Assembly (NCBI GenBank): GCA_035478495.1
Contig: DATIJP010000064.1
Span: forward strand, 5,385 to 69,384
Direction: 5' to 3'
Length of the DNA: 64,000 nt
From: Rhabdochlamydiaceae bacterium
GTDB taxonomy: Bacteria; Chlamydiota; Chlamydiia; Chlamydiales; Rhabdochlamydiaceae
A program made the position numbers and the translations under genes. The notes under the pieces are model-generated. The model ran no database searches. It was not told the DNA's origin and saw nothing but the letters and a program-made list of their open reading frames with translations. Shown piece after piece: positions 12,672 to 28,663 of the stretch. How positions within the stretch are numbered: the first letter of the stretch is position 1; each line of letters starts with the position of its first letter.

Positions 12672-14046
12672 AATCCATTCTCTTGACCCTTCCCAAATAG
12701 GCAAGGAATTATGGGTCTGCGGTTGGATACGCTCTGTCCGCAATCAGAAAACCTTTACATTTATTGAGCTTAATGATGGCTCTTCGCTTTCTAGTCTTCA
12801 AGTAGTCGCAGAAGAATCTCTCCACAATTACAAAGAGATCTTGCCTTTGCTTTCTACTGGCGCTGCAGTAGGTATCCAAGGAATTTTGGTCGAAAGCCCG
12901 GGACATAAACAAAAGTGGGAGCTAAAGGCCACTGCAATCACAATTTTTGGAACCTGTCCTGCTGAAGAGTATCCCTTACAGAAAAAAAGACATACGTTTG
13001 AATTTTTGCGCTCAATTGCCCATTTGCGCCCACGCACCAATACACAAGGCGCAGTGGCAAGAGTGCGCAGCAGAATTTCTTATAATACGCATCGTTTTTT
13101 CACTGATCGAGACTTTATTTTTATTCCTACCCCGCTCATCACCACTTCAGATACAGAGGGAGGCGGTAAACAATTTAGAGTCACAACACTTGATTTGGAC
13201 AAACTTCCAAAAAATTCCGATGGAACCTGCGATTTCACCAAGGATTTTTTCCATAAGCCCGCTTATTTGACAGTCTCAGGACAGCTTAATGGAGAGGCCT
13301 ATGCCTGTGCCCTATCGGATATTTATACTTTTGGTCCTACTTTCCGCGCAGAGCTTTCCTACACCCCGAAACATCTTGCGGAATTTTGGATGATTGAGCC
13401 TGAGATGGCCTTCACTGATCTTGCCGGCAATATCAAAGTGATTGAAGATTACATCAAATTTGTGATCGATGACATTTTGAACACCTGCAGCGAAGATATG
13501 GAATTTTTTGATCAATTCATCGAACAAGGGCTGTTGCAGCGTCTGCAAGTGGTCTTAAACTCTCCTTTTGCACAGATCACCTACACAGAGGCCATTGATA
13601 TCCTAACTCAATCAGGTCGCACATTTGAATATCCCGTTCAATGGGGAATGGACCTCCAAACAGAACATGAGCGCTATCTCGCCGAAGAATATTGTAAGAA
13701 ACCGGTGTTCCTGACCAATTATCCAGAAAAAATCAAAGCATTTTACATGCGCGCAAATGACGATGGTAAAACAGTTGCCGCAGTCGATCTTCTTGTACCT
13801 AAAATTGGAGAATTGGTCGGTGGCAGCCAGCGTGAAGATAGATTAGATAGGCTTGAGAGAAAGATTATTGATTTTGGACTGAAACCCGATGACTATTGGT
13901 GGTATAACCAGCTTAGAAAATATGGCACTGTTCCTCATAGTGGATTTGGCGTTGGTTTCGAAAGATTTTTGCTCTTTGCTATGGGAATGGAAAATATCCG
14001 CGATGTGATCCCTTTCCCACGATATCCTGGTCACTCCGAATTTTAA
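12640..14046 (+). CDS. asnS: Asparagine--tRNA ligase
   Basis: 468 aa with an N-terminal OB fold (VCGWIRSVRNQKTFTFIELNDGSS) and class II motifs FRAELSYTPKHLAEFWMIEPEMAF and GFGVGFERF. It overlaps the nfo 3' end by 32 nt. Confidence 0.9.
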   Translation: MKNTLSLPRTKIHSLDPSQIGKELWVCGWIRSVRNQKTFTFIELNDGSSLSSLQVVAEESLHNYKEILPLLSTGAAVGIQGILVESPGHKQKWELKATAITIFGTCPAEEYPLQKKRHTFEFLRSIAHLRPRTNTQGAVARVRSRISYNTHRFFTDRDFIFIPTPLITTSDTEGGGKQFRVTTLDLDKLPKNSDGTCDFTKDFFHKPAYLTVSGQLNGEAYACALSDIYTFGPTFRAELSYTPKHLAEFWMIEPEMAFTDLAGNIKVIEDYIKFVIDDILNTCSEDMEFFDQFIEQGLLQRLQVVLNSPFAQITYTEAIDILTQSGRTFEYPVQWGMDLQTEHERYLAEEYCKKPVFLTNYPEKIKAFYMRANDDGKTVAAVDLLVPKIGELVGGSQREDRLDRLERKIIDFGLKPDDYWWYNQLRKYGTVPHSGFGVGFERFLLFAMGMENIRDVIPFPRYPGHSEF

Positions 14047-14054
14047 TTCCCCCA

Positions 14055-14141
14055 GTTATTTCTTCCTCTGTGGTCTCTGTGATCTCTGTGGTTAAAATTT
14101 CTTTTTTTATTTCACCACAGAGGGCACAGAGAGCACAGAGA
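14055..14141. repeat. Family C intergenic repeat, copy C3 (compact palindrome)
   Basis: TTATTTCTTCCTCTGTGGTCTCTGTGATCTCTGTGGTTAAAATTTCTTTTTTTATTTCACCACAGAGGGCACAGAGAGCACAGAG lies between the convergent asnS and purN genes. It is a plausible bidirectional terminator-like hairpin. Confidence 0.8.
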
Positions 14142-14155
14142 AAACAAATCCTGAA

Positions 14156-14851
14156 TTAATGAGATATATGCACTTTATTATCGCTATCTATTGCGATGCG
14201 ACCTTCCGCAATCATTTTAATGGCAGTCAAACAGGCAGGTAGGTCGCTTTGCACCTTCTGCTTTGCTTGATGCAATAAGGCCTTTTGTTTTGTAAGAGGA
14301 TATCCTTCTGTATAATCCACTGAAGGTCCTGTGACAAGGATGGGCCCATTATCTACCCCTTCATCGACTAAAAACACACAAGATGAGGTTTTGGTCTCAC
14401 CTGCTTGAAGCGCAAGATAAACGCTATCGGCCCCGATATATTTTCTTTTTCCTTCCCCGTCAAGAATGGTTAAATCTGCGGGATGCACATTGATGATATT
14501 AAAATGGGACAAAAGCGGCGCTTTAACGAGCCTCATGTAGCCTGCAAGGAGAATCAGATCAATGGAAAATTGGTGCAGAGCCGCACATTCTAAAAGCAAT
14601 CTTACTGCCTCTTCATCATATTCTAGACGAATTTCAGCAGCAGATTTTTTTTCTAATCCTTTTAAGGCAACAAAACGTTGAAAGGAGTGGTCGATGACCG
14701 GAATTTTTTCTAAATGCCCGAGATCTTGAAAGCGACAAGGGCGATCGGATAAAAGGGCTTTGATTTCAAAACAGCCAGGATTTTTTTTTCTCTCTTCTAA
14801 AAGAGCTTCTAAATTACTTCCATGTCCAGAACCAAACACCACAAGATGCAT
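14156..14851 (-). CDS. purN: Phosphoribosylglycinamide formyltransferase
   Basis: Motifs MHLVVFGSGHGSNLEALL, INVHPADL and VFLVDEGVDNGPILV are present. The ORF track extends to 14965, but that start overlaps purD by 83 nt. The homology-consistent start is the ATG at 14851, and 14914 is an alternative. Confidence 0.8.
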   Translation of the reverse strand: MHLVVFGSGHGSNLEALLEERKKNPGCFEIKALLSDRPCRFQDLGHLEKIPVIDHSFQRFVALKGLEKKSAAEIRLEYDEEAVRLLLECAALHQFSIDLILLAGYMRLVKAPLLSHFNIINVHPADLTILDGEGKRKYIGADSVYLALQAGETKTSSCVFLVDEGVDNGPILVTGPSVDYTEGYPLTKQKALLHQAKQKVQSDLPACLTAIKMIAEGRIAIDSDNKVHISH

Positions 14852-14882
14852 CGGGCGATCTTGTTTTGGAGTATAGAGAGGC

Positions 14883-16139
14883 TTAAATGTTGCTAAATTG
14901 ATTGGCGATGTCATGGCGAAAATGGGCTTTTGAAAAATGGATTGATTGAGTAGCCAAATAGGCATGATGAGTGGCCTCTTTTAGAGTAGCGCCGAGTCCG
15001 GTCACTCCAAGAACTCTCCCTCCTGCTGTCATCAGTTCTCCTTTGGTATTTCGTCCTGTCCCTGCATGAAAAATTAAGGTGTTGGGAAAGTTTTTTGCCT
15101 CATCTAATCCTGTGATGATTTCGCCTGTTGTATAATTTCCCGGATACCCTCCTGAGGCCATCACGACGCAGCAAGAAGATAATTGTTTCCAAGAAAGTTT
15201 TTGGGAAGAGAGCTCTTTTTTAGTACAGGCATACATAATTTGACCGAGATCGTTTTCTAATAAAGGCAGCACTGCTTGGGCTTCTGGATCACCAAAACGG
15301 CAGTTGTATTCCAGTAGCATCGGCCCCTTTTGTGTTAACATGAGTCCGAAAAAAAGAATGCCGCAATAGTCAATTCCCTCTTTGCGTAATCCCTCTTTGG
15401 TGCGCTCTAAGATTAACTCCTGGATCTTTTCCATTTCGGAGGAGGTCACAAATGCAGCAGGGGCATAAGCACCCATGCCTCCTGTATTAGGCCCTTGATC
15501 CTGATTGTAAACCTTTTTATGGTCTTGCGAAGGAAGCATAGGAAGAATCTCTTTTCCATCACAAAATGCAAGCAGCGAGATCTCTTTTCCTTGCAAAAGC
15601 TCCTCTAGGACCATTTCTTCCTCTTTGCCCTCCAGCGCTTCTTTTGCCTCTTCTATTGTCTGACAGCTCGTCACCCCTTTGCCTTGTGCAAGTCCGCTAA
15701 CTTTAACAACTATTCCCTTCCACCTGTCAAAATAAGGCGCGCAACTCAAAGAAGCCTCTTTTCTTGTTTTAAAAGTTGCAAAAGAGGCGGTAGGAATCCC
15801 ATATTTGTTCATAAATTGTTTTGCAAAGGCTTTACTGCTTTCAAGTAAGGCCCCTTCTCTAGTGGGGCCAAAAAAAGGAATCCCCGCTTCTTTAAAGGCA
15901 TCTCCCATGCCGCCTGCAAGGAAAATCTCTGGCCCAGCGCACGCCATATCGATCCCGTTTTTTTTGACAAAGTCGATGAGCGCCAAAAAATCAAAGGGAT
16001 TGATAGATGGAGATATTTTTTCACAAAATTCTTCTGTGCCAGGATTACCCGGAATACAATAAACACTATGTCCGGATTGAGATAAGGAGTATGCGATCGC
16101 ATGCTCTCTTCCCCCTGATCCTATGAGCAAAATTTTCAT
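14883..16139 (-). CDS. purD: Phosphoribosylamine--glycine ligase
   Basis: 418 aa with MKILLIGSGGREHAIA, ATP-grasp core and GGMGAYAPA. Confidence 0.9.
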   Translation of the reverse strand: MKILLIGSGGREHAIAYSLSQSGHSVYCIPGNPGTEEFCEKISPSINPFDFLALIDFVKKNGIDMACAGPEIFLAGGMGDAFKEAGIPFFGPTREGALLESSKAFAKQFMNKYGIPTASFATFKTRKEASLSCAPYFDRWKGIVVKVSGLAQGKGVTSCQTIEEAKEALEGKEEEMVLEELLQGKEISLLAFCDGKEILPMLPSQDHKKVYNQDQGPNTGGMGAYAPAAFVTSSEMEKIQELILERTKEGLRKEGIDYCGILFFGLMLTQKGPMLLEYNCRFGDPEAQAVLPLLENDLGQIMYACTKKELSSQKLSWKQLSSCCVVMASGGYPGNYTTGEIITGLDEAKNFPNTLIFHAGTGRNTKGELMTAGGRVLGVTGLGATLKEATHHAYLATQSIHFSKAHFRHDIANQFSNI

Positions 16140-16152
16140 GTCTAATGTTCCC

Positions 16153-17472
16153 CTAATGGTCCATGCTTTTCAAAATTCTGGCAGCAGCTAGAGCGGCATT
16201 GGCAGGATCGATGACAGTCATGGAAGGCACTTTGCTTGGCATTTGCAAAGTGGAATGAATATTTACAAGATAATCACTGTAATCTTTAAAAGGAGGACAT
16301 GCGATCACCGGCCATTTAAGATTTGCAGCTAAAACTCCCGAAAGGGCATTGCTCCTTCCAGCAACTGTGATACATACTAAAGATTCTAAACTTTCATTGT
16401 ATTCGGTAATCAGCTCGAGTGTTTTGCGCGGATCTTTATGGGCAGAAGCATAGACAATAGAAAGTGGAATTTGTTGCTCTTGAAGAGTAGCTACGATCTT
16501 ATCCACATGGGGTTTATCACTTTCACTTCCTGCCCAAATGAGAGCAAATACTCCCTGAATCATCTTGGCCTGTTTTAGATTTGCAATCAGCCGCTTGGAA
16601 ATAGTAGCTGAAGCCGGTTCCAATTTTTGACCAGTGATTGCTTCATAAAGCGAAACATAGCCTGCTCGAACTTTCTCTATAATTTCTGGAGGCAAACTAG
16701 GAATGACTCCACTTCCAGTAAAACCTTGAGAGCGCAACCATTCTCTTAAAAATTCTTTATCGGGAAACTTGACCTCTTTGCGATCGTAATCATCTTGGAA
16801 CCAAAATCTAGATGAATCGGGCGTATGGATCTCATCGATTAAAAGAATTTCTCCATTGGGAGCGATTCCAAATTCATATTTCGTATCCACTAAGATTAAT
16901 CCTTTGGATTTAAGAAGTTCACAACCCCTTTTATAAAGTTTTAAGGCGGCCTCTTTGATATAATTCCAAGTAGAAGCGCTCATTACCCCGGATGCGATGA
17001 GTTCTTCAGCCGTGATATCCTCATCATGTCCCTCTTCACTTTTTGTTGTGGGTGTGACAATGGGCTCTTTGAGTGGATCATTTTGTTTTAAACCTTCAGG
17101 CAGCGGCACACCGCATTTTACTCTTTTCCCTTTCTGATAATCACGCCACATTGAGCCCGCTAAAAATCCTCTTACGATAATTTCTGCTTTGATAGGTTGG
17201 CATCTTTTTGCCAAAAGAACATTTGGATCGGGATGATCAACCAAATGATTGGGAACGAGATCTTTTGTCTGTTCAAACCAGAAGAGCGAAAGCTTTGTTA
17301 ATATAGCCCCCTTGTCCTGAATTGGCTCCGGTAAAATGCGATCAAATACCGAAATCCGGTCACTAGCAACAAGCGCCAATTGATCTTTTAAAAAATAGAT
17401 ATCTCTTACTTTTCCTTTTGTAGGCCTTCCGAGTTCCGGAAGAAAAGTGTTTGGCAGTAGGTGCGTTTGCAT
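16153..17472 (-). CDS. purCE: Bifunctional SAICAR synthetase (N-terminal) / class II-like AIR carboxylase PurE (C-terminal); PAICS-like domain order
   Basis: 439 aa. The N-terminal half has GKVRDIYFLKDQLALVASDRISVFD and LVDTKYEFG (SAICAR synthetase). The C-terminal ~150 aa has AGSESD, ASAHKDP and VAGRSNALSGVLAANLKWPVIACPP. These match the metazoan PAICS/class II strings SAHKGP and VAGRSNGLGPV...PVISCPP, not class I SAHRTP and AGGAAHLPGM. An AGAGGA SD precedes the ATG. Confidence 0.8.
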   Translation of the reverse strand: MQTHLLPNTFLPELGRPTKGKVRDIYFLKDQLALVASDRISVFDRILPEPIQDKGAILTKLSLFWFEQTKDLVPNHLVDHPDPNVLLAKRCQPIKAEIIVRGFLAGSMWRDYQKGKRVKCGVPLPEGLKQNDPLKEPIVTPTTKSEEGHDEDITAEELIASGVMSASTWNYIKEAALKLYKRGCELLKSKGLILVDTKYEFGIAPNGEILLIDEIHTPDSSRFWFQDDYDRKEVKFPDKEFLREWLRSQGFTGSGVIPSLPPEIIEKVRAGYVSLYEAITGQKLEPASATISKRLIANLKQAKMIQGVFALIWAGSESDKPHVDKIVATLQEQQIPLSIVYASAHKDPRKTLELITEYNESLESLVCITVAGRSNALSGVLAANLKWPVIACPPFKDYSDYLVNIHSTLQMPSKVPSMTVIDPANAALAAARILKSMDH

Positions 17473-17495
17473 AGTTCCTCTTTTTTAAAAATTAA

Positions 17496-19142
17496 TTAAT
17501 GATAAAAATAACGTTGCCCTGTAAAGATCATACACATCTCTTGAGCGTCTGCTGCTTGAATGACGCTTAAATCATTGTTCGATCCTCCCGGTTGAATACA
17601 ATATTTAATCCCCTGCGATGCAGCGCTATTGATACTGTCCGCAAAGGGGAAAAAACCATCACTAGCTAATACACAGGTCGATAAATCTTTTTTCGGGTCA
17701 TAAGAAGCAACATTCAGATTTTCTGCACGCAGGTTATCGATCGTTTTAGGAAGTGCAAGCCTTTCAAGACAATCGATTCTATTAGGCTGTCCCGAACCTG
17801 ATCCTATCATCTGATAAGATCCCGGAGCATATTCTCTGACAATGGCAATGGCATTTGATTTTAGAAAATTTACAGCTAAAATTGCAAAACCAAACAGATT
17901 GAGTTGCTCAGGAAGAGGCGCTTTTTTGGTCATGATGCCCCTTGGGCTTGTTTCACTTGAAAGAGAAGGCATAAATAATTCTGCTAATGAACGGGTTGGG
18001 TTTTGTTTTCTTGTTTGGACCAACATTCCCCCACTAATGCTTTTAAAAATGAAAAGATCTTCTCTCTTTTTGCCAAGCTCTAGCAACCTTAAATTGGGTT
18101 TGACCTTTTCTGCCCACTGGATAAATGCGCTTTCAAATTTCGGGGCCACTATAACTTCGATAAATTTTTTAGTAAGAAAGGGGATGAGTTGGCTAGAACA
18201 TTCAAAAGAAAGCCCAATCACACTGCCAAAAGCAGATTTGGAATCACATTCCCAGGCTCTTTCTAATGCTTGCAGCTCATTTTGTCCTGTTGCATATCCG
18301 CAAAGGCTGCCATGCTTTACGATAGAAACACCATAATTGCTGCCTAAGGAAATAAGCTCTTGCGAAGAATAGTAGGCAAGCGTTGCATCTTCATAATTAT
18401 TAAAGGAGATCTGTTTACCGGAGAGAATTTTAGCTTGAGCAAGCCCTCCTGCATTTGCAAATTCATAGATCCATCCTTTTTGATCAGGGTTTTCACCATA
18501 ACGCAGCTCTTGTCCCTTATTAAGCTGAATAAAGTGCATTTTTTCACTTTTCATCCTCTTAGAAAGTTCACTTGCAAGCACCGATTCGTAAGCAGCGCTT
18601 AATTGAATCGCTTTTACAGCCAGAGATTTTCTTGTTTCCAGTGATAAAGAGCCTTCTAATGAAACCAGCTCTTTTAAAAGGGATTCATAATCACCCGGAT
18701 CAACAACTACAGCCACATCAGAAAAATTCTTACAAGCGCTTCTAAGAAGAGTAGATCCTCCAATATCTATCTTTTCGACCACATCTTCTAATCTGTTTTC
18801 AGGATTTAATGCGGCCTTTTCAAAATCATATAAGTTGCAGATGACAAGGTCGATTCCCTCTATCCCCAGTTTTTTAGCTTCCTCTTCATGAACTCCTCGA
18901 CGATAAAGAATTCCTCCCATAATTTTAGGATGCAAAGTTTTTACTCTTCCCCCAAAGCATTCGGGAGATTTTGTATAATCGCTAAGGAGGGTAAAAGGAA
19001 TTTCAAATTTTTTAAGTTCTTCAGCTGTTCCTCCTGAAGCAATCAAATTTATAGAGGGATTGATGGCCAAAAGTCCTTTAAGAAAAAAGCTCAAATGGGT
19101 TTTATCAGTCACGCTTACAAGGACTGTTTGGATTTTTTTCAT
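17496..19142 (-). CDS. purH: Bifunctional AICAR transformylase / IMP cyclohydrolase
   Basis: Motifs VLVSVTDKT, GGTAEEL, VKTLHPKIMGGIL and QPGGSNND are present. The ATG at 19142 (MKKIQ...) has an AAGAGG SD 6 nt upstream. The ORF track start at 19148 abuts that SD. Confidence 0.9.
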   Translation of the reverse strand: MKKIQTVLVSVTDKTHLSFFLKGLLAINPSINLIASGGTAEELKKFEIPFTLLSDYTKSPECFGGRVKTLHPKIMGGILYRRGVHEEEAKKLGIEGIDLVICNLYDFEKAALNPENRLEDVVEKIDIGGSTLLRSACKNFSDVAVVVDPGDYESLLKELVSLEGSLSLETRKSLAVKAIQLSAAYESVLASELSKRMKSEKMHFIQLNKGQELRYGENPDQKGWIYEFANAGGLAQAKILSGKQISFNNYEDATLAYYSSQELISLGSNYGVSIVKHGSLCGYATGQNELQALERAWECDSKSAFGSVIGLSFECSSQLIPFLTKKFIEVIVAPKFESAFIQWAEKVKPNLRLLELGKKREDLFIFKSISGGMLVQTRKQNPTRSLAELFMPSLSSETSPRGIMTKKAPLPEQLNLFGFAILAVNFLKSNAIAIVREYAPGSYQMIGSGSGQPNRIDCLERLALPKTIDNLRAENLNVASYDPKKDLSTCVLASDGFFPFADSINSAASQGIKYCIQPGGSNNDLSVIQAADAQEMCMIFTGQRYFYH

Positions 19143-19152
19143 TATCATCCTC

Positions 19153-19920
19153 TTAATTGAGTGCGTTTTTAAATAGAGATAGACTCTCCGCGTATATAGG
19201 AAGCTCTTTTTGCTGCAGCTTAAGCTGCTCTTTTTTTCGAATCCAATGGGGATCCTGTGTAAAAAAAATAGCTGCTTCCGGATGGGCCATCATCCCCAGA
19301 ATGCGGCCGGTGGGGTCGCAGATGCCAGCAATTGCCTCCGTAGAACCATTGGGATTTTCATGCTGATATCGCAAAACTACCTGCCCATTTTGAAACAAGG
19401 CTTTAATGACCTGATCATTTTGAGCAACAAATTTTCCTTCTCCATGGCGGATCGGTAGATAAAGCGCCTGAAGATTTTGAGTAAAAAGACAGCGCGAAGG
19501 AAGCACCTCATGATCGATCCAGCGGCATTCGAAATGAGCGGAATTGTTAAAAGCTAAGGAGACAGATTGGTTTAAATGGGACTCTAAAGAAGGAAGAAGC
19601 CCTAATTTAACAAGCAGTTGAAAGCCATTGCAGATTCCTAGAATCATTCCTCCACCGGCAACAAAAGAAAAAAGATGATCGCGCAAGCTACAGGCGTGAT
19701 GTGAAAGGCGATTAGCAAGTGCTTTGCCAGCACCCATTTCATCACCAAATGTAAAGCCGCCCGGAAATACAATCAGTTTAAATCTAGACCAATCAAAGCC
19801 GGGGTCAAATAAGCACTTAATGTGCATCGAAGTGACCTTTGCACCTGCACTTTGACAGGCCACCTCCATCTCTCGGTTGCAATTTATTCCATATCCCTCA
19901 AGGACGAGTGCCTCTTTCAT
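19153..19920 (-). CDS. purQ: FGAM synthase, glutamine amidotransferase subunit
   Basis: Triad motifs are present: GICNGFQLL (Cys) and MMAHPE (His/Glu). The start is most likely the ATG at 19920 (MKEALVLEGYGINCNREM), not the ORF-track start at 19941. Confidence 0.85.
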   Translation of the reverse strand: MKEALVLEGYGINCNREMEVACQSAGAKVTSMHIKCLFDPGFDWSRFKLIVFPGGFTFGDEMGAGKALANRLSHHACSLRDHLFSFVAGGGMILGICNGFQLLVKLGLLPSLESHLNQSVSLAFNNSAHFECRWIDHEVLPSRCLFTQNLQALYLPIRHGEGKFVAQNDQVIKALFQNGQVVLRYQHENPNGSTEAIAGICDPTGRILGMMAHPEAAIFFTQDPHWIRKKEQLKLQQKELPIYAESLSLFKNALN

Positions 19921-20079
19921 GAATCTATCCCAATATTCCAAAACTTTGATTTTTGAAAATTTTTTTCACAGATTTTAGTCTCGCTTCGCAGCACATACTT
20001 AGACAAGTAGAGCAAGAAGCGAGACTAAAAGGTGTGGAAAAAAAGGCAAAAAGCATGTTTTTGAAATATTGGGATAGGT

Positions 20080-23031
20080 TCATAAGCTCCTTTTTGCAAA
20101 AGGTTTTTGCCAAGCCTCTTTTAATGTATGAAGCTGCAATTGGATAGTAGGTTCCTGATTTTTTCCCAAAACGGTAAAGGCCTGGTCCTTCCGCACCTTT
20201 CCAATGCAGGAAAGCTCTTCTTTGTTAAAAAGCGACTCAAAATTTGTCACATGGCGAGAGGGTAAAGTCACAATTAATCTGCTGCTTGATTCAGAAAAAA
20301 GAATTTCGGCATCGGATAAGACTCCTTCAACCGGTACTTGACTAAGAGAAATTTCCATTCCAAGTCCGCCACTGAAAGCGGATTCTGCAAGAGCTACCGC
20401 TAATCCGCCGTCAGAACAATCGTGACAAGAAGTAATCATGCCAGCACGAATAGCCCGATGCAGAGCAAGATAGTTTTGCCTAGCCCTATTTGCATTTACA
20501 CTTGGCGCATCTCCCCCTTCAATCTTTTTCATAGCATAGAACTCAGAAGCAAAAAGCTCGTTTTTTGTCATTCCAATGATATAGATTAGATCATCTGCCA
20601 TCTTAACATCCATGGAAATAGCGTTATCGATCGAATCGATCTTTCCGAGTGCAGAAATCAGCAATGTTGGAGGGACTGAAATTTTAATATTGCCGATACA
20701 ATAGTCATTTTTCATGCTATCTTTACCCGATATGATCGGTGTTTTAAACGCCTTGGCATAATGGTAAAGAGCTTTGTTAGCACGAACAAGCTGCGCAAGT
20801 TTAAAAGCTCCATCGGGATTATGAATGGGATTTTCTACGGGATCAGGCCACGAAAAATTATCGAGGATGGCTATCCTTGAAGGATCTGCACCCACAGCAA
20901 CACAATTGCGGATCGCCTCATCAATTGCGACAGCTGTCATGTCGTAAGTATCTTTATCGCTATATTTGGGGCAAATCCCATGGCCAATGACAAGGGCTTC
21001 TTTGCTTGCAAGAAGCTCAAGCGGCTTTAAAATAGCTGCATCGCTTGGACCATCGTGATAAAGCCCTGTAAATGGTTTTAAACAGGTAGCTCCCTGAACT
21101 TCATGATCAAATTGTCGCACCCAATATTCTTTGCTGCACACATTATATCTGCTAAGAATATCTAGCAGCTCTTTCTCGTAGGAAGAGGTAGGAGTGATTT
21201 TTGGAAGCGCATCTTTTTTTGGGGCCCATTCTGCTTTTAAATTCAGTTGCGGCACCCCCTCATGCAGAAAATCAAGATGCAGCAAAGCCACTGTTTTTCC
21301 CTTAAAGAGAACATGAAAATTGCCAGACGCTACGAAGTTGCCGATGGTTACAAGTTCTACTTCGTGAAGATGTGCAAGGGCATAAAGTTCTTGAACTTTG
21401 TCACTGGATACCGCGAGTGTCATACGCTCTTGCGATTCGCTAAGTAAAATTTCCCAAGGAGATAGATTGGCTTGTTTTAAAAGGACCCGATCTAGTTCAA
21501 TTTCACATCCTCCGCAAAATCTTGCCATTTCTCCGACCGACGAGGAGAGTCCTCCCGCTCCATTATCTGTGATCGCGTTATAGAGCTTAAGATCGCGCGC
21601 CTGCAAAAGAAAATCTTGCAGTTTTTTTTGAGTAAAAGGATCTCCAATCTGAACAGCTGTGGTTGGACTTGATTCCGTCAGCCCTTCTGAGGAAAAGGTA
21701 GCGCCATGAATGCCATCTTTTCCTGTTCTTCCGCCTGCAATGATGATCAAATTACCAGGGTAAATCTTCTTTTCATGCGTCTTCTCTCCTTGAATTGCGC
21801 AAGGCATAATGCCGATTGAACCGCAATAGACAAGTGGCTTTCCCAAATATCTATCATCGAATGTAATCGATCCATTGACTGTGGGAATCCCAGACTTATT
21901 GCCGGCATGTTCTATGCCGCGGCAGACTCCTTCAAGGATTCTTTTAGGATGGAGAAGTTTTTGTGGAATTTTTGCAGAAAAATCAGGAGGTGCAAAACAG
22001 AGAATGTCCGTATTAGCGATCAGGCGCGCACCTAAACCCGCACCTAAGATATCTCTATTCACTCCAAGGACCCCTGTGAGGGCGCCTCCGTAGGGATCGA
22101 GGGCGGAAGGGCTATTATGAGTCTCTACTTTAAATGCAAGATTCCATGACTCATTAAAACGGATAATTCCTGCGTTATCTTTAAAAATAGAAACGAGCCA
22201 ATCAATTTCCTCGGATAGTTCTTCGGTAGCTTTCACGATATAAGTGTGAAATAAACTATCAATTTCTTCCTCGTTTCCGTTTTCTTTATAGCTTATCTTT
22301 GCATTGAAAATTTTATGTTTGCAATGTTCGCTCCATGTCTGAGCAATCGCCTCAAGCTCTACATCAGTTGGATCCAATGAAAGAGAGGCTAAGGAGCGAC
22401 TTTCCTTAATCTCAGGACGATCAAAATATTTTTTTATCTCTTTCATCTCTTGAAGAGTTAGAGCCAAATGGCGCCGCTGGCTGAGCTCAATAAGCTCCTC
22501 ATCGCTTAAAACGAGAGAAATCGTCTCAATTTTATCAGAATGCATGGAAAAAATGAGCACATCCTCGATTAAGGGATTCGCTAATAATTGGAGCGCAATT
22601 TTTTCGATCTGATCTTTAGAAAGAGTGCCTGAAAAGAGATATTTCCATCCTGAATAGATCTCTTCATGCGTTTCAAAAGGAGCTTTTAAAAAATCCTCAA
22701 TAGTCGTCCGCGCCGTTTTCCCAGCTGTGTCAGTCACTCCTGGTTTAAATTGCACTTCCACTGCCCAATCTGCTTGCAAGGGAAGCTTTTTTTCTGCGCC
22801 TATTTCAAGGATTGGGTCCAAAAGAAGATGCGTTGTTAGAGCATGGACTTGTGAAGATGTTAGTTTTTTGTGGATCTGATAGAAACGGACAATTTGAAGT
22901 TTTTCTACAGGAATTTTAAAAAACTCGCGAATAGAGTGCAGTAAGTGGTGGGCTTTTGGGTCAGTATGCTCCTCTCGCATACAAATCTCGACCCGATGAG
23001 GGATGAGCGCATTTCTTAAAATTACATCCAT
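20080..23031 (-). CDS. purL: FGAM synthase subunit PurL with two fused N-terminal PurS-like modules (PurS-PurS-PurL)
   Basis: 983 aa. From QTWSEHCKHKIF onward it is a small-type PurL. The ~230-aa N-terminal extension contains two PurS-like repeats. The second reads VEVQFKPGVTDTAGKT...QLLANPLIEDV (compare PurS V.LK.GVLDPQG...LLANPVIEDY). Confidence 0.85.
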   Translation of the reverse strand: MDVILRNALIPHRVEICMREEHTDPKAHHLLHSIREFFKIPVEKLQIVRFYQIHKKLTSSQVHALTTHLLLDPILEIGAEKKLPLQADWAVEVQFKPGVTDTAGKTARTTIEDFLKAPFETHEEIYSGWKYLFSGTLSKDQIEKIALQLLANPLIEDVLIFSMHSDKIETISLVLSDEELIELSQRRHLALTLQEMKEIKKYFDRPEIKESRSLASLSLDPTDVELEAIAQTWSEHCKHKIFNAKISYKENGNEEEIDSLFHTYIVKATEELSEEIDWLVSIFKDNAGIIRFNESWNLAFKVETHNSPSALDPYGGALTGVLGVNRDILGAGLGARLIANTDILCFAPPDFSAKIPQKLLHPKRILEGVCRGIEHAGNKSGIPTVNGSITFDDRYLGKPLVYCGSIGIMPCAIQGEKTHEKKIYPGNLIIIAGGRTGKDGIHGATFSSEGLTESSPTTAVQIGDPFTQKKLQDFLLQARDLKLYNAITDNGAGGLSSSVGEMARFCGGCEIELDRVLLKQANLSPWEILLSESQERMTLAVSSDKVQELYALAHLHEVELVTIGNFVASGNFHVLFKGKTVALLHLDFLHEGVPQLNLKAEWAPKKDALPKITPTSSYEKELLDILSRYNVCSKEYWVRQFDHEVQGATCLKPFTGLYHDGPSDAAILKPLELLASKEALVIGHGICPKYSDKDTYDMTAVAIDEAIRNCVAVGADPSRIAILDNFSWPDPVENPIHNPDGAFKLAQLVRANKALYHYAKAFKTPIISGKDSMKNDYCIGNIKISVPPTLLISALGKIDSIDNAISMDVKMADDLIYIIGMTKNELFASEFYAMKKIEGGDAPSVNANRARQNYLALHRAIRAGMITSCHDCSDGGLAVALAESAFSGGLGMEISLSQVPVEGVLSDAEILFSESSSRLIVTLPSRHVTNFESLFNKEELSCIGKVRKDQAFTVLGKNQEPTIQLQLHTLKEAWQKPFAKRSL

Positions 23032-23990
23032 TCTACACCTACATCTGCATTTCTTATCTCACCGATCACGATGCAATCCTTTCGACTTGCAACAAGCTTA
23101 TGTGCATCGCCCTCTTCCAATGCTGCCACCATTCCGATCCCCATATTAAACACGCGGTACATCTCATCTTCTGCAATATCTCCCCTCTCTTGAAGCCATT
23201 TAAAAATAGGAGGAACTTCCCAGTTGTTTTTACAGATATAAGCTCTTTTCCCTTCAGGAAGAAATCGGGGAACATTTTCCAAAAGACCGCCTCCTGTAAT
23301 ATGGGCCAGCCCTTTAATTTTGAAATTTTTAAGAATATCGAAAATGGTTTTCACATAAATACGTGTAGGGGTCAGCAGGATTTCTCCGATTGTTTTATCG
23401 CTTTGAGGAATCTTTTCCAAAAGGCTTGTTTGGGAATCTTTTAATATTTTCCTTACAAGAGAAAAGCCGTTGCTATGAACACCAGTTGAGACAATGCCAA
23501 CAAGCAAATCTTTCTCTTGAATTTCTTTGCCATCAATGAGCTTTTTTTTAGGGAGGATCCCTACTGCAAACCCTGCCATATCATATTCTTTTTCTTGATA
23601 GAAACCGGGCATTTCAGCGGTTTCTCCGCCTAAAAGAATGCATTCTGCTTCTTTACATCCTTCAATGATTCCGTGAAGAATTGTTTCCGCTTGATCGACA
23701 TCTATTCTCGAGCTTGCCAAATAATCTAAAAGAAAAAGGGGCCTTGCGCCGGTTGTGATCACATCGTTTACACACATCGCAACAAGATCGATTCCGATGG
23801 TCTCATGTTGATTCATTTCAAATGCCAGTTTCAGCTTTGTTCCGACACCATCACAGCTGGCAACTAGATATTGGTCGCCATAAGGATAAAGTCCACTGAA
23901 CCCTCCGATCTCCGGACAGAGATTTTTTAAACGTTCAACGAAGTGATTCCCACGATCGATATCCACACCTGATTTGGCATAACTGCCCAT
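23022..23990 (-). CDS. purM: Phosphoribosylformylglycinamidine cyclo-ligase (AIR synthetase)
   Basis: 322 aa with YAKSGVDIDRGN, CDGVGTKL and HITGGG. An AAGAGGA SD is present. It overlaps the purL start by 10 nt. Confidence 0.9.
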   Translation of the reverse strand: MGSYAKSGVDIDRGNHFVERLKNLCPEIGGFSGLYPYGDQYLVASCDGVGTKLKLAFEMNQHETIGIDLVAMCVNDVITTGARPLFLLDYLASSRIDVDQAETILHGIIEGCKEAECILLGGETAEMPGFYQEKEYDMAGFAVGILPKKKLIDGKEIQEKDLLVGIVSTGVHSNGFSLVRKILKDSQTSLLEKIPQSDKTIGEILLTPTRIYVKTIFDILKNFKIKGLAHITGGGLLENVPRFLPEGKRAYICKNNWEVPPIFKWLQERGDIAEDEMYRVFNMGIGMVAALEEGDAHKLVASRKDCIVIGEIRNADVGVEWM

Positions 23991-24020
23991 AGAAATTCCT
24001 CTTAGTTTTAATAAAATTTT

Positions 24021-25418
24021 TTATTCAAAAATAACGCTATTTTTAATCTCTTCGAGAAATTCGCTTACCTGCTGCGGCGCTCTTCCCACAAGGCGCTCTT
24101 TAGAAGAAAGCATTTGGATCTCTTCTAGAGTAAGCGGCAGGGAACTATTTTCTGCGATTCTAGAAAGTAGATCACTTTTTTCATCTCGATTCCCTTTTTC
24201 CCTGTCCTGCTGAGAAAGAGTTCTTAATGTTTCATGCACCTCTTGCCGGCTTGCCCCTTTTTTCGAAAGGGCCATGAGAACAGGTTCGAGGGACATTGAA
24301 GGCATCTCTTCTTCAAGGTGCTTATTAATCACTTCTTGATTCACTTGCAGATTTTCAGTGATGAATAGGAGTGAATCAAGGATGGCGTCCACGCAAAGAA
24401 AAGCTTCTGGAATACAAAAGCGCCTATTCGCAGAGTCATCAAGACTTCTTTCAAGCCATTGAAGAGAAGCTGTGTATTTGGGATTTTCGGAAAGGGCGAT
24501 CAGATAACGAGCAAGGGAGCAAACTTTTTCGCTTTCGATCGGATTGCGCTTATAAGGCATCGCAGTAGATCCCACCTGATTTTTTTTAAAGGGCTCTGCA
24601 ACTTCTTTTAAATGCACTAAGAGCCTTATGTCGGTGGCCATCTTATGAGCTGAGACTCCAATCCCTGAAAGAAGATCAAGGAGTTGAGAATCCTGTTTTC
24701 TAGTGTAAGTTTGACCAGAAATAGAAAAAACACGATTAAACCCTAATCGCTCTGCAAGCAATTGATCCAGCTCTTTGACCTTTTCATGGTCCCCATTAAA
24801 AAGCTCAAGAAACGAAGCTTGGGTCCCTGTTGCTCCTTTAACTCCTAAAAAACAAAAATTATCCTTTCGATAGTTAAGATCTTTCCAATCCAGCCAAAAA
24901 TCTTGAAGCCAAAGACAAAATCTTTTTCCCACTGTTGTAGGCTGTGCTGGCTGAAAATGGGTATAGCTTAAACAGGCAAGATTGCGATAAAAATCTGCTT
25001 TTTCTAAAAGCGCCTTCATCAGCCGTTTTAATTTTGTTTCAATGAGTTCAAGCGCTTCATGGATCAAAATCATTTCAGCATTATCTGTTACAAGACAAGA
25101 AGTTGCCCCCAGATGAATAATCCCAGCAGCTTCAGGACATTCATCGCCATAAGCTCTGATATGCGCCATGACATCATGTCTGAGTTCTTTTTCATAGTTT
25201 TCCGCTTTTACAAGATCGATGGAGTCAATCTTTTCTTTTAAAAGATCAATTTGTTTTTGCGTAATGGAAAGGCCTAAAAGCATTTCAGCCTCTGCTAATG
25301 CAACCCAAATTTTTCTCCAAGTAGAGAACTTTTTTTGCGCAGAAAAAAGAGTGCGCATTTCACAGCTGCCATATCTTCTAGAAAAAGGAGATTCATAATG
25401 ATCTTCTTTACAGTTCAT
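24021..25418 (-). CDS. purB: Adenylosuccinate lyase
   Basis: 465 aa with SPFSRRYGSCEM, GATSCLVTDNA and the fumarate-lyase signature GSTAMPYKRNP. Its ATG overlaps the purF stop (ATGA). Confidence 0.9.
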   Translation of the reverse strand: MNCKEDHYESPFSRRYGSCEMRTLFSAQKKFSTWRKIWVALAEAEMLLGLSITQKQIDLLKEKIDSIDLVKAENYEKELRHDVMAHIRAYGDECPEAAGIIHLGATSCLVTDNAEMILIHEALELIETKLKRLMKALLEKADFYRNLACLSYTHFQPAQPTTVGKRFCLWLQDFWLDWKDLNYRKDNFCFLGVKGATGTQASFLELFNGDHEKVKELDQLLAERLGFNRVFSISGQTYTRKQDSQLLDLLSGIGVSAHKMATDIRLLVHLKEVAEPFKKNQVGSTAMPYKRNPIESEKVCSLARYLIALSENPKYTASLQWLERSLDDSANRRFCIPEAFLCVDAILDSLLFITENLQVNQEVINKHLEEEMPSMSLEPVLMALSKKGASRQEVHETLRTLSQQDREKGNRDEKSDLLSRIAENSSLPLTLEEIQMLSSKERLVGRAPQQVSEFLEEIKNSVIFE

Positions 25419-26827
25419 AATCTGCTCTCGACTAAACGAAGTTCGGTTAATTCATTCGCATCTTGAATGCATGTGGGATAGTTACCCGTTAAACAGGCTG
25501 TACAGAGATCAGGGAGTCCCACACTCTCTTTAAAATCCTCAACGCTATTATAAACAAGTCCATCGATATCAAGTGCTTTAGAAATTTCTTCAAGACTTTT
25601 TCCCCATGCGATGAGCTCCTCTTGACTTGGAAAATCAATTCCATAGTAACAAGGATAAAGCACTTGAGGATAAGTAGAAGCAAAAAAGATCTTTTTCGCT
25701 CCTGCTTTTCTCGCTAAATAGACAGCTTGTTTGGAAACTGTCCCTCTTACAATGCTATCGTCCACCAGAAGAATCTTCTTATCTTTAAATACGGAATTGA
25801 CAGTAGAAAGTTTCGATATAACTGCCTTTTTTCGACTATCTTGTGTAGGCATAATGAATGTTCTTCCCACATTATCTTGTTTTAAAAACCCTTCTTCTAA
25901 AGGGATATTTAAATCCCTGGCTAATCCTAAAGCTGAAGGTCTTGCCGTATCAGGAATAGGAATGACCACATCTATTTTAAATCCAGCCTTTTTAACATTT
26001 CTAGCCAAAGATTGACCCAATCGAAATCGAATTTGATAGACATCGGTCCCTTCGATCATTGCATTAGGTTTACAAAAATAGTTAAACTCAAAACTACAGT
26101 GGCTATGTTTTTGCTCATTTAAGTCAGCTTGATGGAGCCGATAGTCTTGATCGATAAAGAGTAGTTGACCAGGTTTAACATCGCAAATATTTTGTACATC
26201 TAATTGAACTAATGGACCTGCCTCGGACGAGAAAAAATGCGCTTTTCCCTTCTGTTTTGTTCCATATAAAAAGGGTCTAAATCCAAAAGAGTCTCGAAAA
26301 GCAAAAAGCCCAAAGCCCTCAATAATTCCCAGAATTGAATAGGCGCCTACAACGCGGGAGTGGACCTCTTCCACAGCCCTAGAAAGAGAATCAAATGACA
26401 TTTCTTCTTGCAAATGAGAAAAAAGTATTTTCAAAATGACTTCTGTGTCCGATGTGGTTTCAAAATCAGCTCCTTCTGCCATTAATTCCCGTTTTAGAGA
26501 AATATAGTTGGTGATATTTCCGTTGTGAACAATAGAGAGGGTGAGCTTGTTTTTACTGATGACTAGAGGCTGTACCTCTTGAATACTATTCTTCCCGGCT
26601 GTTGCATAACGTAAATGACCGATGCCCCATGAACCTTCTGGAAGAGGCTGGAAAGAAAAAACCTGATGAACAAGGCCACGATTTTTCAGTAGGGTCGATT
26701 TTTTTTTAGATGCATCATAGATAAAAATCCCTGCCCCGTTCTGACCCCGATGTTGCAAGAGATTTAATCCTTGCAAAAGATTTTCGGCAGCTCTTTCTTT
26801 TCCTATGATTCCAAAAATACCGCACAT
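25415..26827 (-). CDS. purF: Amidophosphoribosyltransferase
   Basis: 470 aa with the Ntn N-terminus MCGIFGIIG and the PRPP loop ILLVDDSIVRGT. Confidence 0.9.
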   Translation of the reverse strand: MCGIFGIIGKERAAENLLQGLNLLQHRGQNGAGIFIYDASKKKSTLLKNRGLVHQVFSFQPLPEGSWGIGHLRYATAGKNSIQEVQPLVISKNKLTLSIVHNGNITNYISLKRELMAEGADFETTSDTEVILKILFSHLQEEMSFDSLSRAVEEVHSRVVGAYSILGIIEGFGLFAFRDSFGFRPFLYGTKQKGKAHFFSSEAGPLVQLDVQNICDVKPGQLLFIDQDYRLHQADLNEQKHSHCSFEFNYFCKPNAMIEGTDVYQIRFRLGQSLARNVKKAGFKIDVVIPIPDTARPSALGLARDLNIPLEEGFLKQDNVGRTFIMPTQDSRKKAVISKLSTVNSVFKDKKILLVDDSIVRGTVSKQAVYLARKAGAKKIFFASTYPQVLYPCYYGIDFPSQEELIAWGKSLEEISKALDIDGLVYNSVEDFKESVGLPDLCTACLTGNYPTCIQDANELTELRLVESRL

Positions 26828-26897
26828 GTGGTGATGATGCCTAAAAAAGAAAAAAGCATTGTGTCAAAATTTTTTCTTTCAGATCAAGACATTTCTT

Positions 26898-27410
26898 TTA
26901 AATCGGATCGATGTAGAGCTTTTGAATCCAGTAGTGAGTTCCTGCATTCAAAAGACGGATAATAATTTTATTTTCCCCTTCATTGAGCTGAATAGGAAAA
27001 TAATCCTCGCGCCAGCCATTGACTGCTGGAAAGAATCGCCGTGCTATGATCTTACCATTCACCTTAATTGAAATCGGAGAATTTCCTGGCAGAGATGAAA
27101 GGTGGCTTAAAATAAGGTTCCAACTTTTTTCCGCTTCTTCTTTTGTTAAAACAGGTTTTATTTCGAGATAACTATGATAAGGAATCGCCATCATCCAATT
27201 CCAGGGATAATAGCGATTAAACCATACTCCTGGTCCCGTTTCCGCAGAGATATTTCCCGCTTCAGAAGTGATCACATCATTAGCAAAGTTCAAGTGGAAT
27301 GCATGCGGAAGTTCCCAATGCGGAACTGGTGCCGTAGCAACCATCTCTACAGCTGGCTTTTCTACGGCACTCATATCGATCGTGTTCAATGCAAGCAATA
27401 ATTCAAACAT
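26898..27410 (-). CDS. Hypothetical 170-aa protein, first gene of the purine operon
   Basis: ATG start with an AGGAG SD 5 nt upstream. It lies 70 nt upstream of purF on the same strand. I recognise no family motif. The C-terminal part (SIKVNGKII...QLNEGENKIIIRLLN) looks like a beta-sandwich. Confidence 0.5.
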   Translation of the reverse strand: MFELLLALNTIDMSAVEKPAVEMVATAPVPHWELPHAFHLNFANDVITSEAGNISAETGPGVWFNRYYPWNWMMAIPYHSYLEIKPVLTKEEAEKSWNLILSHLSSLPGNSPISIKVNGKIIARRFFPAVNGWREDYFPIQLNEGENKIIIRLLNAGTHYWIQKLYIDPI

Positions 27411-27487
27411 AAAAACTCCTATTATTCATTATTTGCGGCGAAAATTGTACTAACTCAAAAACATAAACTCAATTATTCTATGATAAA

Positions 27488-28663
27488 ATGCAGCAAAGAC
27501 CATCCTTTTTCATTTTGCTATTTCTTGTTTCTTTTGCGTCAGTTGGAGCAGTTCTTTTTACACCTGCGCTGCCTTCCATTGCCTCTTTTTTTCAAGTCTC
27601 TGCTGGCAAAGTACAATTGACAATGACTTCATTTCTTCTTGGCTATGCATTTGGACAGCTTCCTTACGGTCCCTTAGCAAATCGATTTGGAAGAAAAGTC
27701 ACTTTATATATCGGCATCTCTTTAGCCATTTTGGGCAGTTTGCTCTGTGCATTTTCATCACCGCTTGATTCATTTGAATTATTGGTTTTTGCGCGATTTC
27801 TACAAGCCTTAGGCGCCTCTGTCGGCCTAAAGGTTAGTTTCACGATGATTGCCGATGTTTATAGCCAAACAGAGGCAACAAAAATGCTCTCTGGCATGAT
27901 GATTGCATTTGCTGTGATGCCTGGGATCGCGATAGCCATTGGCGGATGGTTGACCCAATTATTTAATTGGGAAAGCTGTTTTTATTTCCTAGTTCTCTTC
28001 GGAATATTTATTTTGTGGATTTCTACCAAATTGCCAGAGACAGCAAAATCCTTAGATCATCATGCGTTAAATATAAGTTCAATCACTGCCGGCTACGCAG
28101 AAGCATTTAAAAACAAACTTCTTGTCATTAGCGGATTAATCATGGGTTGCTGTACAGCAACCATCTATGTCTTTGCCTCGAAAGCACCTTTCATCGGTAT
28201 TAGTTTAATTGGACTCTCTCCCGATGTTTTTGGAAATTACAACTTAATCCCCCCTGTAGGAATGCTTTTAGGCGCGCTTGTATCGGCTAAGATCGTAGGG
28301 AAATTCTCTTTACTGAGGATTCTTTTTGCAGCAGCTGCGACTTCTCTTATAGTGGCTTTTACGATGCTTATTCCATTTTTAGTGGGAAAAATCAATCCTA
28401 CCGTCTTGTTTTTCCCTATGCTTCTGATCTATTTTGCCCAAGCGTTAATTCTCGCCAATGCCTCATCTTATGGACTAGCAAATGCAAAAAATAAATCAAA
28501 CGGCTCAGCAGTTATGAATTTCGTCAATTTAAGCACCTCTGTCGCGGCTGTACTCCTCTTAGAATTCATTTATCCAGAATCCGCCATTCTGATGCCGTTA
28601 AGTTTTATGATTTTCTCCTTTATTGCGCTTTTGTTGTGGTTCAAGCTTAAAAAAGCTCTTTAA
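27488..28663 (+). CDS. MFS transporter (Bcr/CflA drug-efflux-like, 12 TM)
   Basis: 391 aa with about 12 hydrophobic segments and the MFS loop motif GPLANRFGRK between TM2 and TM3. Confidence 0.8.
   Translation: MQQRPSFFILLFLVSFASVGAVLFTPALPSIASFFQVSAGKVQLTMTSFLLGYAFGQLPYGPLANRFGRKVTLYIGISLAILGSLLCAFSSPLDSFELLVFARFLQALGASVGLKVSFTMIADVYSQTEATKMLSGMMIAFAVMPGIAIAIGGWLTQLFNWESCFYFLVLFGIFILWISTKLPETAKSLDHHALNISSITAGYAEAFKNKLLVISGLIMGCCTATIYVFASKAPFIGISLIGLSPDVFGNYNLIPPVGMLLGALVSAKIVGKFSLLRILFAAAATSLIVAFTMLIPFLVGKINPTVLFFPMLLIYFAQALILANASSYGLANAKNKSNGSAVMNFVNLSTSVAAVLLLEFIYPESAILMPLSFMIFSFIALLLWFKLKKAL

Follow-up and report, generated by a model that had tools for sequence, protein, structure and literature searches.

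The 64,000-nucleotide stretch analysed here (the window; GenBank assembly GCA_035478495.1, contig DATIJP010000064.1, positions 5,385 to 69,384 of the forward strand) comes from a member of the Rhabdochlamydiaceae and carries, on its minus strand at window positions 14156-26827, nine contiguous purine biosynthesis genes in the order purF, purB, purM, purS-S-L, purQ, purH, purC-purE, purD and purN. Enzymes for all ten transformations leading from 5-phosphoribosyl pyrophosphate (PRPP) to inosine monophosphate (IMP) are recognizable among their products, which upholds the complete de novo operon proposed in a first-pass annotation of the window. We consider it quite likely, taking both statements together, that these genes specify a functional ten-step pathway operating independently of PurK and that the operon is an accessory module of long standing in environmental chlamydiae, since lost from most lineages. 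The genome, a draft metagenome-assembled genome (MAG) of an uncultured environmental organism with 1.79 Mb in 92 contigs (40.7% GC, 94.5% complete), is chlamydial as first annotated, and the operon does coexist with nucleotide transporters of the NTT family. In the comparisons below it is called G000, and the G-, f- and g-codes denote genomes, families and genera of a 400-genome chlamydial set.

Gene identities were assigned from NCBIfam and Pfam profile scores relative to the curated cut-offs. The first gene, purF (25415-26827), encodes the glutamine PRPP amidotransferase of step 1 (TIGR01134, 386.6 bits versus a cut-off of 350); its N-terminus, MCGIFG, provides the N-terminal cysteine nucleophile, and its cysteine pattern fits the [4Fe-4S] type. 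It is followed by purB (24021-25418), the adenylosuccinate lyase of step 8 and of the second step of the adenosine monophosphate (AMP) branch, which scored 390.9 bits against TIGR00928 (cut-off 326) and carries the signature GSTAMPYKRNP, and by purM (23022-23990), the aminoimidazole ribonucleotide (AIR) synthetase of step 5 (TIGR00878, 405 bits), which is 54-65% identical to purM of other chlamydial operons. Step 4, formylglycinamidine ribonucleotide (FGAM) synthesis, is divided between the 983-residue purS-S-L product (20080-23031; TIGR01736, 542 bits over residues 216-979) and the glutaminase subunit encoded by purQ (19153-19941; PF13507, 228 bits), with the Cys (GICNGFQ) and HPE residues of the catalytic triad. 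The bifunctional purH (17496-19148; NF002049, 470 bits versus 402) accounts for steps 9 and 10 as aminoimidazole carboxamide ribonucleotide (AICAR) transformylase and IMP cyclohydrolase, and is 48-60% identical to 22 chlamydial homologues. The 439-residue purC-purE fusion (16153-17472; PF01259, 243 bits, and PF00731, 108 bits) precedes purD (14883-16139; TIGR00877, 461.7 bits versus 288), the glycinamide ribonucleotide (GAR) synthetase of step 2, and purN (14156-14914; Pfam Formyl_trans_N, 64.8 bits versus 26.1), a divergent GAR transformylase for step 3.

All nine frames are open over the full length of their family profiles, about 12.7 kb altogether, with no stop codon or frameshift, and catalytic motifs were present in every case checked (PurF, PurB, PurQ, PurN and the PurE domain). 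The genes are as tightly packed as the first reading of the sequence had indicated, with overlaps of 4 nt (purF/purB), 10 nt (purM/purL) and 32 nt (purD/purN) and gaps of 4-30 nt at the other junctions, except for a 138-nt spacer between purL and purQ. Moreover, the pur locus is not an assembly chimera, because independent contigs (one NCBI assembly and the two Logan runs SRR9179560 and SRR9179562) carry the same purQ...purN-asnS arrangement, with protein sequences identical between the independent runs, and because both flanks of the operon are syntenic with those of congeners. With neither inactivating lesions nor a chimeric contig seen, the operon is intact and probably functional. We infer that the nine genes are co-transcribed; a promoter and terminator scan of positions 13900-28000 gave counts at the level of shuffled sequence (32 versus 27.4 ± 6.4, and 13 versus 13.7) and was uninformative on transcription units, while an Rfam scan of the window returned two tRNAs only, with no purine or ZTP riboswitch.

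The first-pass annotation had counted ten genes by including an open reading frame (ORF) upstream of purF (orf170, 26898-27410, minus strand), which matches no Pfam or NCBIfam family. This count has to be reduced to nine, since the congener G412, which has no pur operon, carries orf170 directly beside asnS: the orthologue there is 53% identical, and the 128 bp that separate it from asnS contain no pur gene. The frame is thus a resident neighbour outside the pur unit.

The 138-nt spacer between purL and purQ (19942-20079) consists of a palindromic repeat resembling a miniature inverted-repeat transposable element (MITE), with nested inverted repeats I1 and I3. At least 55 copies with 74-91% identity occur genome-wide, and the copy in the operon folds at -72 kcal/mol over 175 nt. 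The first seven codons of purQ as annotated come from the terminal inverted repeat of this element, so that the gene probably begins in fact at the ATG at 19920; PurQ homologues align from residue 8-12 onward. A long GC-rich palindrome also occupies the convergent asnS/purN spacer (14047-14155); it is one of a family of dispersed repeats of which the genome has dozens of partial copies. The asnS/orf170 spacer of G412 holds a different palindrome at the equivalent position. At the operon borders no att-like direct repeats, integrase or tRNA were found, just short repeats at chance level and the spacer palindromes.

The purC-purE product joins a 5-aminoimidazole-4-(N-succinylcarboxamide) ribonucleotide (SAICAR) synthetase (residues 1-300, step 7) to an AIR carboxylase (residues 305-439, step 6). 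In class II PurE enzymes the 40s and 70s loops bear the signature SAHK and AGRSN(A/G)L, and class I enzymes have SAHR and AGGAAHLPG instead. The PurE domain of the fusion contains GSESD, SAHK (residue 343) and AGRSNALSG (residue 371), the latter two identical in the alignment to the Treponema denticola class II enzyme 3rg8. The best scores against PDB structures were obtained with 3rg8 (78.7 bits), insect PAICS 4ja0 (75.8 bits) and human PAICS 2h31 (64.9 bits); the class II structures 3rg8, 5c5d, 4ja0 and 2h31 together spanned 65-79 bits, compared to at most 44 bits for any class I PurE. These features point to a class II, CO2-dependent AIR carboxylase (EC 4.1.1.21), and since a class II domain would require no PurK, direct carboxylation by CO2 without this enzyme is expected for the fusion. 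No purK was found in the genome, where TIGR01161 gave only weak ATP-grasp matches of at most 35 bits against a cut-off of 318, and purK was recovered in 14 of 14 control genomes.

The PurC-then-PurE order, the two loop motifs and the high structural scores liken the fusion to PAICS, but its PurC half is of the long type, with matches to mycobacterial PurC and to yeast Ade1 (191 bits). The match to PAICS structures is limited to residues 311-438, which correspond to the PurE domain, and the SAICAR synthetase domain of PAICS was unmatched at E ≤ 1e-10. Descent of the fusion from animal PAICS was rejected, the PurC half not being of the PAICS type; since this half fails to match the corresponding PAICS domain, the protein, which would work like PAICS, appears to be an independent bacterial fusion shared with Candidate Phyla Radiation (CPR) bacteria. 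Among 20 chlamydial pur operons fetched for comparison from the purH-bearing genomes, five (loci L037, L039, L043, L048 and L049, in G014, G333, G306, G268 and G158) are missing the SAHK and AGRSN motifs or the whole PurE domain, as in the 281-residue counterpart of G268, from which the whole domain is missing. The carboxylation step thus seems to have decayed in about a quarter of the chlamydial operons examined, with the PurE domain intact in G000.

The second fusion, PurS-S-L, begins with a PurS-like tandem of about 170 residues, followed by the FGAR-AT linker and two AIRS/AIRS_C pairs, with purQ as a separate gene. The annotation of an N-terminal PurS tandem therefore stands as far as the architecture is concerned, but only the second repeat (residues 90-158) passes the Pfam threshold, with 28.3 bits versus a gathering score of 22.2, and the first (residues 13-76) is sub-threshold at 13.3 bits. 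The protein is assigned to the PurS-fused 'medium PurL' architecture. Every chlamydial operon examined has the fusion, as do Caldilineaceae and some CPR bacteria. Besides, MAGs of Caldilineaceae (Chloroflexota; loci L082, L088 and L105) encode both a PurS-fused PurL and a protein of PurC-PurE length, in the order purSSL-purQ-purCE-...-purF-purD, so that neither fusion is confined to chlamydiae and CPR bacteria.

A purH match was found in 28 of the 400 chlamydial genomes (about 7% of species), distributed over 21 of 212 genera, and all 28 genomes belong to the same order as G000. The gene order purM-purSSL-purQ-purH-purCE-purD-purN-purF, with both fusions, is present in at least 17 genomes among the 20 loci fetched, from families f1, f5, f6, f7, f21, f24, f38 and f43, whose Pur proteins are 44-66% identical to those of G000, and in many of these loci guaA directly follows purF and guaB directly precedes purM. 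The core block from purM to purN, together with both fusions, has the same order in G000, but purF, together with purB, is placed upstream of the block and not downstream of it. The purB gene is located outside the pur operon in 27 of 32 chlamydial genomes; these copies are 50-61% identical to the G000 gene, the best match being from an f1 genome. The G000 operon is therefore most simply read from gene order as a rearranged derivative of a canonical (guaB)-purM-purSSL-purQ-purH-purCE-purD-purN-purF-(guaA) arrangement, in which purF would have moved to the 5' side, purB would have been recruited and the MITE-like repeat inserted.

The first-pass annotation had also raised the possibility of a recent acquisition, which these data do not favour: apart from the order shared with at least 17 other genomes, the operon has a GC content of 41.3%, the GC content at third codon positions (GC3) and the codon-usage distance of each gene lie within the spread of 954 genome ORFs, and the Pur proteins form a chlamydia-specific clade broadly following families. 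Judged by codon usage, GC3 and GC content, a recent foreign origin of the operon was rejected. Seven Pur proteins were concatenated for a tree (3406 columns; LG+F+G4 as the single model; few outgroups, namely Caldilineaceae, Wirthbacteria and other CPR bacteria), in which the main chlamydial clade was split from the outgroups of CPR and Chloroflexota at 100% ultrafast bootstrap support, with the exception of the divergent operon of G348 (f43), which fell to the side of the outgroups. Each of the families f5, f6 and f24 held together, and G000 was sister to G305 (of another genus, g6, but placed like G000 in family f1) with 100% support, G305 standing apart from the other members of its own genus. 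A clade of f1 with G268 was not rejected in constrained searches (IQ-TREE fast mode, LG+F+G4; approximately unbiased [AU] test, p = 0.115), and a marker tree of AsnS and PckG likewise put G268, together with G240, beside f1, for which reasons a claim of transfer between families was dropped. No AsnS or PckG match at E ≤ 1e-60 was found in G305, which was left out of the marker tree. On the question of vertical descent or horizontal transfer, the family-level history therefore appears compatible with descent and many losses, and the discordance is confined to relationships within f1.

The two congeners G309 and G412, whose AsnS is 92% identical to that of G000 and whose DNA is about 75-80% identical, provide a comparison at closer range. 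Their contigs are contiguous across the site, where the pur operon, guaB and a neighbouring transporter gene of the major facilitator superfamily (MFS) are all absent. Both genomes also lack purA, purB and guaA, genes that are common in the family's other genera. In G309, a 13-codon purA relic (NSIARTKLDLLDS, versus NSIAVTKLDILDS) abuts the syntenic flank (G309:C12:30285-30323; locus L211, 1446-1484), and in G412 about 300 bp stand between the syntenic flanks instead of purA, leaving a clean purA-sized gap. Judging from these loci, the congeners have demonstrably shed purine genes; since purA and purB are missing and G309 retains the purA relic, there is moderate evidence that they also lost the pur operon, rather than G000 having gained it. 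The cargo at the site in G309 includes an apparent toxin-antitoxin pair and a mitochondrial-carrier-like protein, both named by eye.

Several points weigh against the reading of an old and working chlamydial module. On the functional side, PurN scored only 70.7 bits against TIGR00639, under the NCBIfam cut-off of 150.1; the protein nevertheless keeps the Asn-x-His motif (IINVHP) and the Asp (VDEGVDNGP), its PDB matches were PurN structures in 16 of 16 cases, purN occupies the same operon position in other chlamydiae with 39-55% identity, and NCBI's own gene call has 252 residues. The palindromic repeat between purL and purQ could lower the expression of the five genes downstream, and an intact guaA could sit in the roughly 5% of the genome that is unassembled. 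On the historical side, purC, purD and purH have been inferred to be lost before the last common chlamydial ancestor (Dharamshi et al., 2023, PMC9816063), and if so the order-wide operon would be a later regain. Strict monophyly of f1 is rejected in the Pur tree (AU test, 2e-7), and G259 joins G353 in the Pur tree but G132 and G392 in the marker tree, so that some exchange of the operon among related chlamydiae seems likely. In addition, the segment between asnS and a bactofilin gene holds different cargo in each of the three congeners, as in a variable hot spot, and no credible relics of pur, guaB or the MFS gene were found at the empty sites of G309 and G412 (tblastn at E ≤ 1; blastn with word size 7).

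These last observations suit the alternative that the ancestor of the genus had no operon and that G000 took it from a relative of G305 into the variable asnS-orf170 island, later recruiting purB and a foreign guaB. Such a gain would explain why the operon is missing without a relic from a contiguous syntenic site in both congeners, why the site holds different cargo in each of the three, why the G000 operon is sister to that of another genus and G305 separated from its own, and why strict f1 monophyly is rejected; the compositionally foreign guaB 4 kb away indicates, furthermore, that the neighbourhood takes up DNA. Against it, the operon shows no compositional signal, an argument that is weak given that a donor from the same family would share its GC content, and it is flanked by no integrase, tRNA or direct repeats. 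Moreover, purA and purB, linked to it by function, are typical of the family (PurA shares 59% identity with its counterpart in an f1 genus and 52% with the one in f24; PurB 61% at best, in f1), the congeners are themselves losing purine genes, as the missing purA and purB and the relic in G309 attest, and the decayed guaA of G000 argues for a long residence of the module. We therefore regard a gain by G000 as possible but rather unlikely.

The fate of guaA bears on a further alternative, in which the operon is a decaying remnant. Genome searches for the genes that supply and use the pathway recovered purA (contig C39), two prs genes for PRPP, folD and glyA for 10-formyltetrahydrofolate (10-formyl-THF), and hpt, but guaA only as a 98-residue C-terminal relic in a 101-codon frame (C20:40826-41119; locus L053, 1498-1746) that ends in ...GKPPAIMEWE and lies among unrelated genes. 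The gene is intact in 17 of 22 other purH-bearing genomes screened, usually directly after purF. The branch from IMP to AMP accordingly looks complete in gene content and, because guaA is only a relic, the branch from xanthosine monophosphate (XMP) to guanosine monophosphate (GMP) looks broken, so that guanine nucleotides would have to come by import or by Hpt salvage. With purA, purB and guaB intact and guaA a relic, the gene set falls short of full purine autonomy, that is, of making both AMP and GMP from IMP. It could then be argued that the whole operon is unused and heading for loss like guaA, with all purines imported through NTT proteins, and the repeat inserted inside the operon, the five other chlamydial operons without PurE catalytic motifs or the whole domain and the congeners that have lost everything would fit such a course. 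Nevertheless, the nine frames are intact over about 12.7 kb, all checked catalytic motifs are kept, including the three class II motifs of PurE, the genes purA, purB, prs, folD and glyA are intact, and the proteins are identical in independent runs, which makes the remnant scenario improbable.

An origin of the operon by recent acquisition from outside Chlamydiota, for instance from CPR bacteria or from a eukaryotic host with a PAICS-like fusion, is very improbable and is contradicted for G000: the nearest non-chlamydial PurC-PurE fusions, judged from one pattern-based scan with PurC-PurE, are those of Peregrinibacteria, Gracilibacteria and Wirthbacteria at 44-49% identity and the domain order is that of animal PAICS, but the chlamydial PurCE homologues are much closer (58-66%) and constitute a separate clade (100% support), the complete gene order is common to chlamydiae only and not shared by those CPR loci, the PurC half has its matches in yeast Ade1 and mycobacterial PurC with PAICS matching over the PurE domain only, that domain is as near to the spirochaete enzyme as to insect PAICS, and the composition is native.

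The pathway supported by these genes, if functional as we favour, would start from PRPP provided by the two prs genes located elsewhere in the genome. PurF would convert it to phosphoribosylamine and PurD would form GAR, which PurN would formylate to formylglycinamide ribonucleotide using the 10-formyl-THF that FolD and GlyA supply. FGAM would then be made by PurS-S-L and PurQ jointly, and AIR by PurM. The class II PurE domain is predicted to carboxylate AIR to carboxyaminoimidazole ribonucleotide by direct addition of CO2, with no ATP spent, and the fused PurC domain to produce SAICAR, from which PurB would release AICAR and PurH would generate IMP. PurA and PurB would lead from IMP to AMP, and guanine nucleotides would be obtained from the host via NTT transporters or through Hpt salvage.

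The guaB gene lies 4 kb from the operon, as first annotated, on the plus strand (frame 30936-32570, with a likely start at 31044; TIGR01302, 641 bits), and its product is an IMP dehydrogenase (IMPDH) of the eukaryote type, with 619 bits to human IMPDH1 versus 384 bits to the best bacterial structure. The gene is a compositional outlier, with a GC content of 48.6%, a GC3 of 0.515 at the 100th percentile and a codon-usage distance at the 99th percentile of genome ORFs. At most other chlamydial pur loci guaB is of the bacterial type and shares only 41-47% identity with it, and a 64%-identical guaB lies beside the divergent pur cluster of G348. A more speculative interpretation, which we hold only tentatively, is that the module is in the midst of remodelling: an old super-operon running from guaB and purM to purF and guaA and specifying an animal-like ten-step route, in which a class II PurE is fused to PurC and PurK is lacking, would have been reshuffled, with guaA decayed and the bacterial guaB replaced by a eukaryote-type IMPDH acquired from a host or some other eukaryote, leaving adenine self-made and guanine host-dependent. 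The class II motifs of PurE, the guaA relic and the eukaryote-like guaB of foreign composition are observed; a eukaryotic donor and the division between adenine and guanine supply are guesses. If this interpretation holds, an animal-like route would suit an intracellular life that is rich in CO2 and parasitic on host ATP.

The NTT transporter annotated at 48986 was likewise confirmed (48986-50530, plus strand; TIGR00769, 448 bits versus a cut-off of 387), and the genome has three NTT paralogues, all above the TIGR00769 cut-off. An ATP/ADP exchanger yields energy and no net purine, and for this reason the presence of such an exchanger alongside a de novo pathway would be no paradox. The window also holds, at 27488-28663 and divergent from orf170, the MFS transporter mentioned above, of the Bcr/CflA family (192 bits versus a cut-off of 200.9), which is absent in both congeners and weakly resembles PunC, a transporter of purine nucleosides (113 bits).

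The Bacillus subtilis operon purEKBCSQLFMNHD also gathers all steps to IMP into a single operon, in which PurS, PurQ and a small PurL are separate and PurF is of the [4Fe-4S] type. It differs from the operon described here in its gene order, in the use of PurK with a class I PurE, giving eleven activities, and in its unfused PurS and PurC; no purine riboswitch or other Rfam element is found in the G000 operon. For archaea, Brown et al. (2011, PMC3261824) describe a class II PurE in the absence of PurK as well as a 'medium PurL' whose N-terminus is PurS-like, so that both are known kinds of architecture. As in the medium PurL of some methanogens, which has about 200 extra N-terminal residues in place of PurS and a separate PurQ (PMC3261824), the glutaminase of G000 is encoded apart, but the extension here is bacterial, recognizably PurS-like, with one repeat over the Pfam threshold, and common to Caldilineaceae and CPR bacteria.

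Within the phylum, classic chlamydial genomes are unable to make IMP (PMC4333871), and the contrast with purine-auxotrophic Chlamydiaceae that had been drawn for this locus is real. However, it is not new, since complete purine synthesis together with NTT transporters, with a patchy distribution, is reported for a few environmental chlamydial lineages in the available portions of two studies (Dharamshi et al., bioRxiv 10.1101/577767; Koestlbacher et al., 2021, PMC8242063, supplementary discussion), and G000 is one more such lineage. Those portions score the presence of KEGG pathways and do not describe the order of genes in the operon, its two fusions (PurS-S-L and PurC-PurE), a class II PurE in the absence of PurK or presence and absence within a genus. 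A chlamydia with a purine pathway and NTT was thus already known, and the operon anatomy may be unpublished within the part of the literature covered.

Overall, the gene content suggests that the operon would lower host dependence for adenine nucleotides only. The reduced host dependence put forward in the first-pass annotation is therefore sustained for the adenine branch, which is complete, and was overstated for purines as a whole, as guanine nucleotides would still be imported or salvaged given the guaA relic. Chlamydiae are the textbook nucleotide parasites, and the purine capacity of a lineage matters for its dependence on the host, for efforts to grow chlamydiae host-free and for reconstructing the chlamydial ancestor. 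To these questions the locus adds a clean and intact example of an order-wide operon with a predicted PurK-independent CO2 route, present in one species and absent from two congeners at a defined site, in a genome whose GMP branch appears to be decaying.

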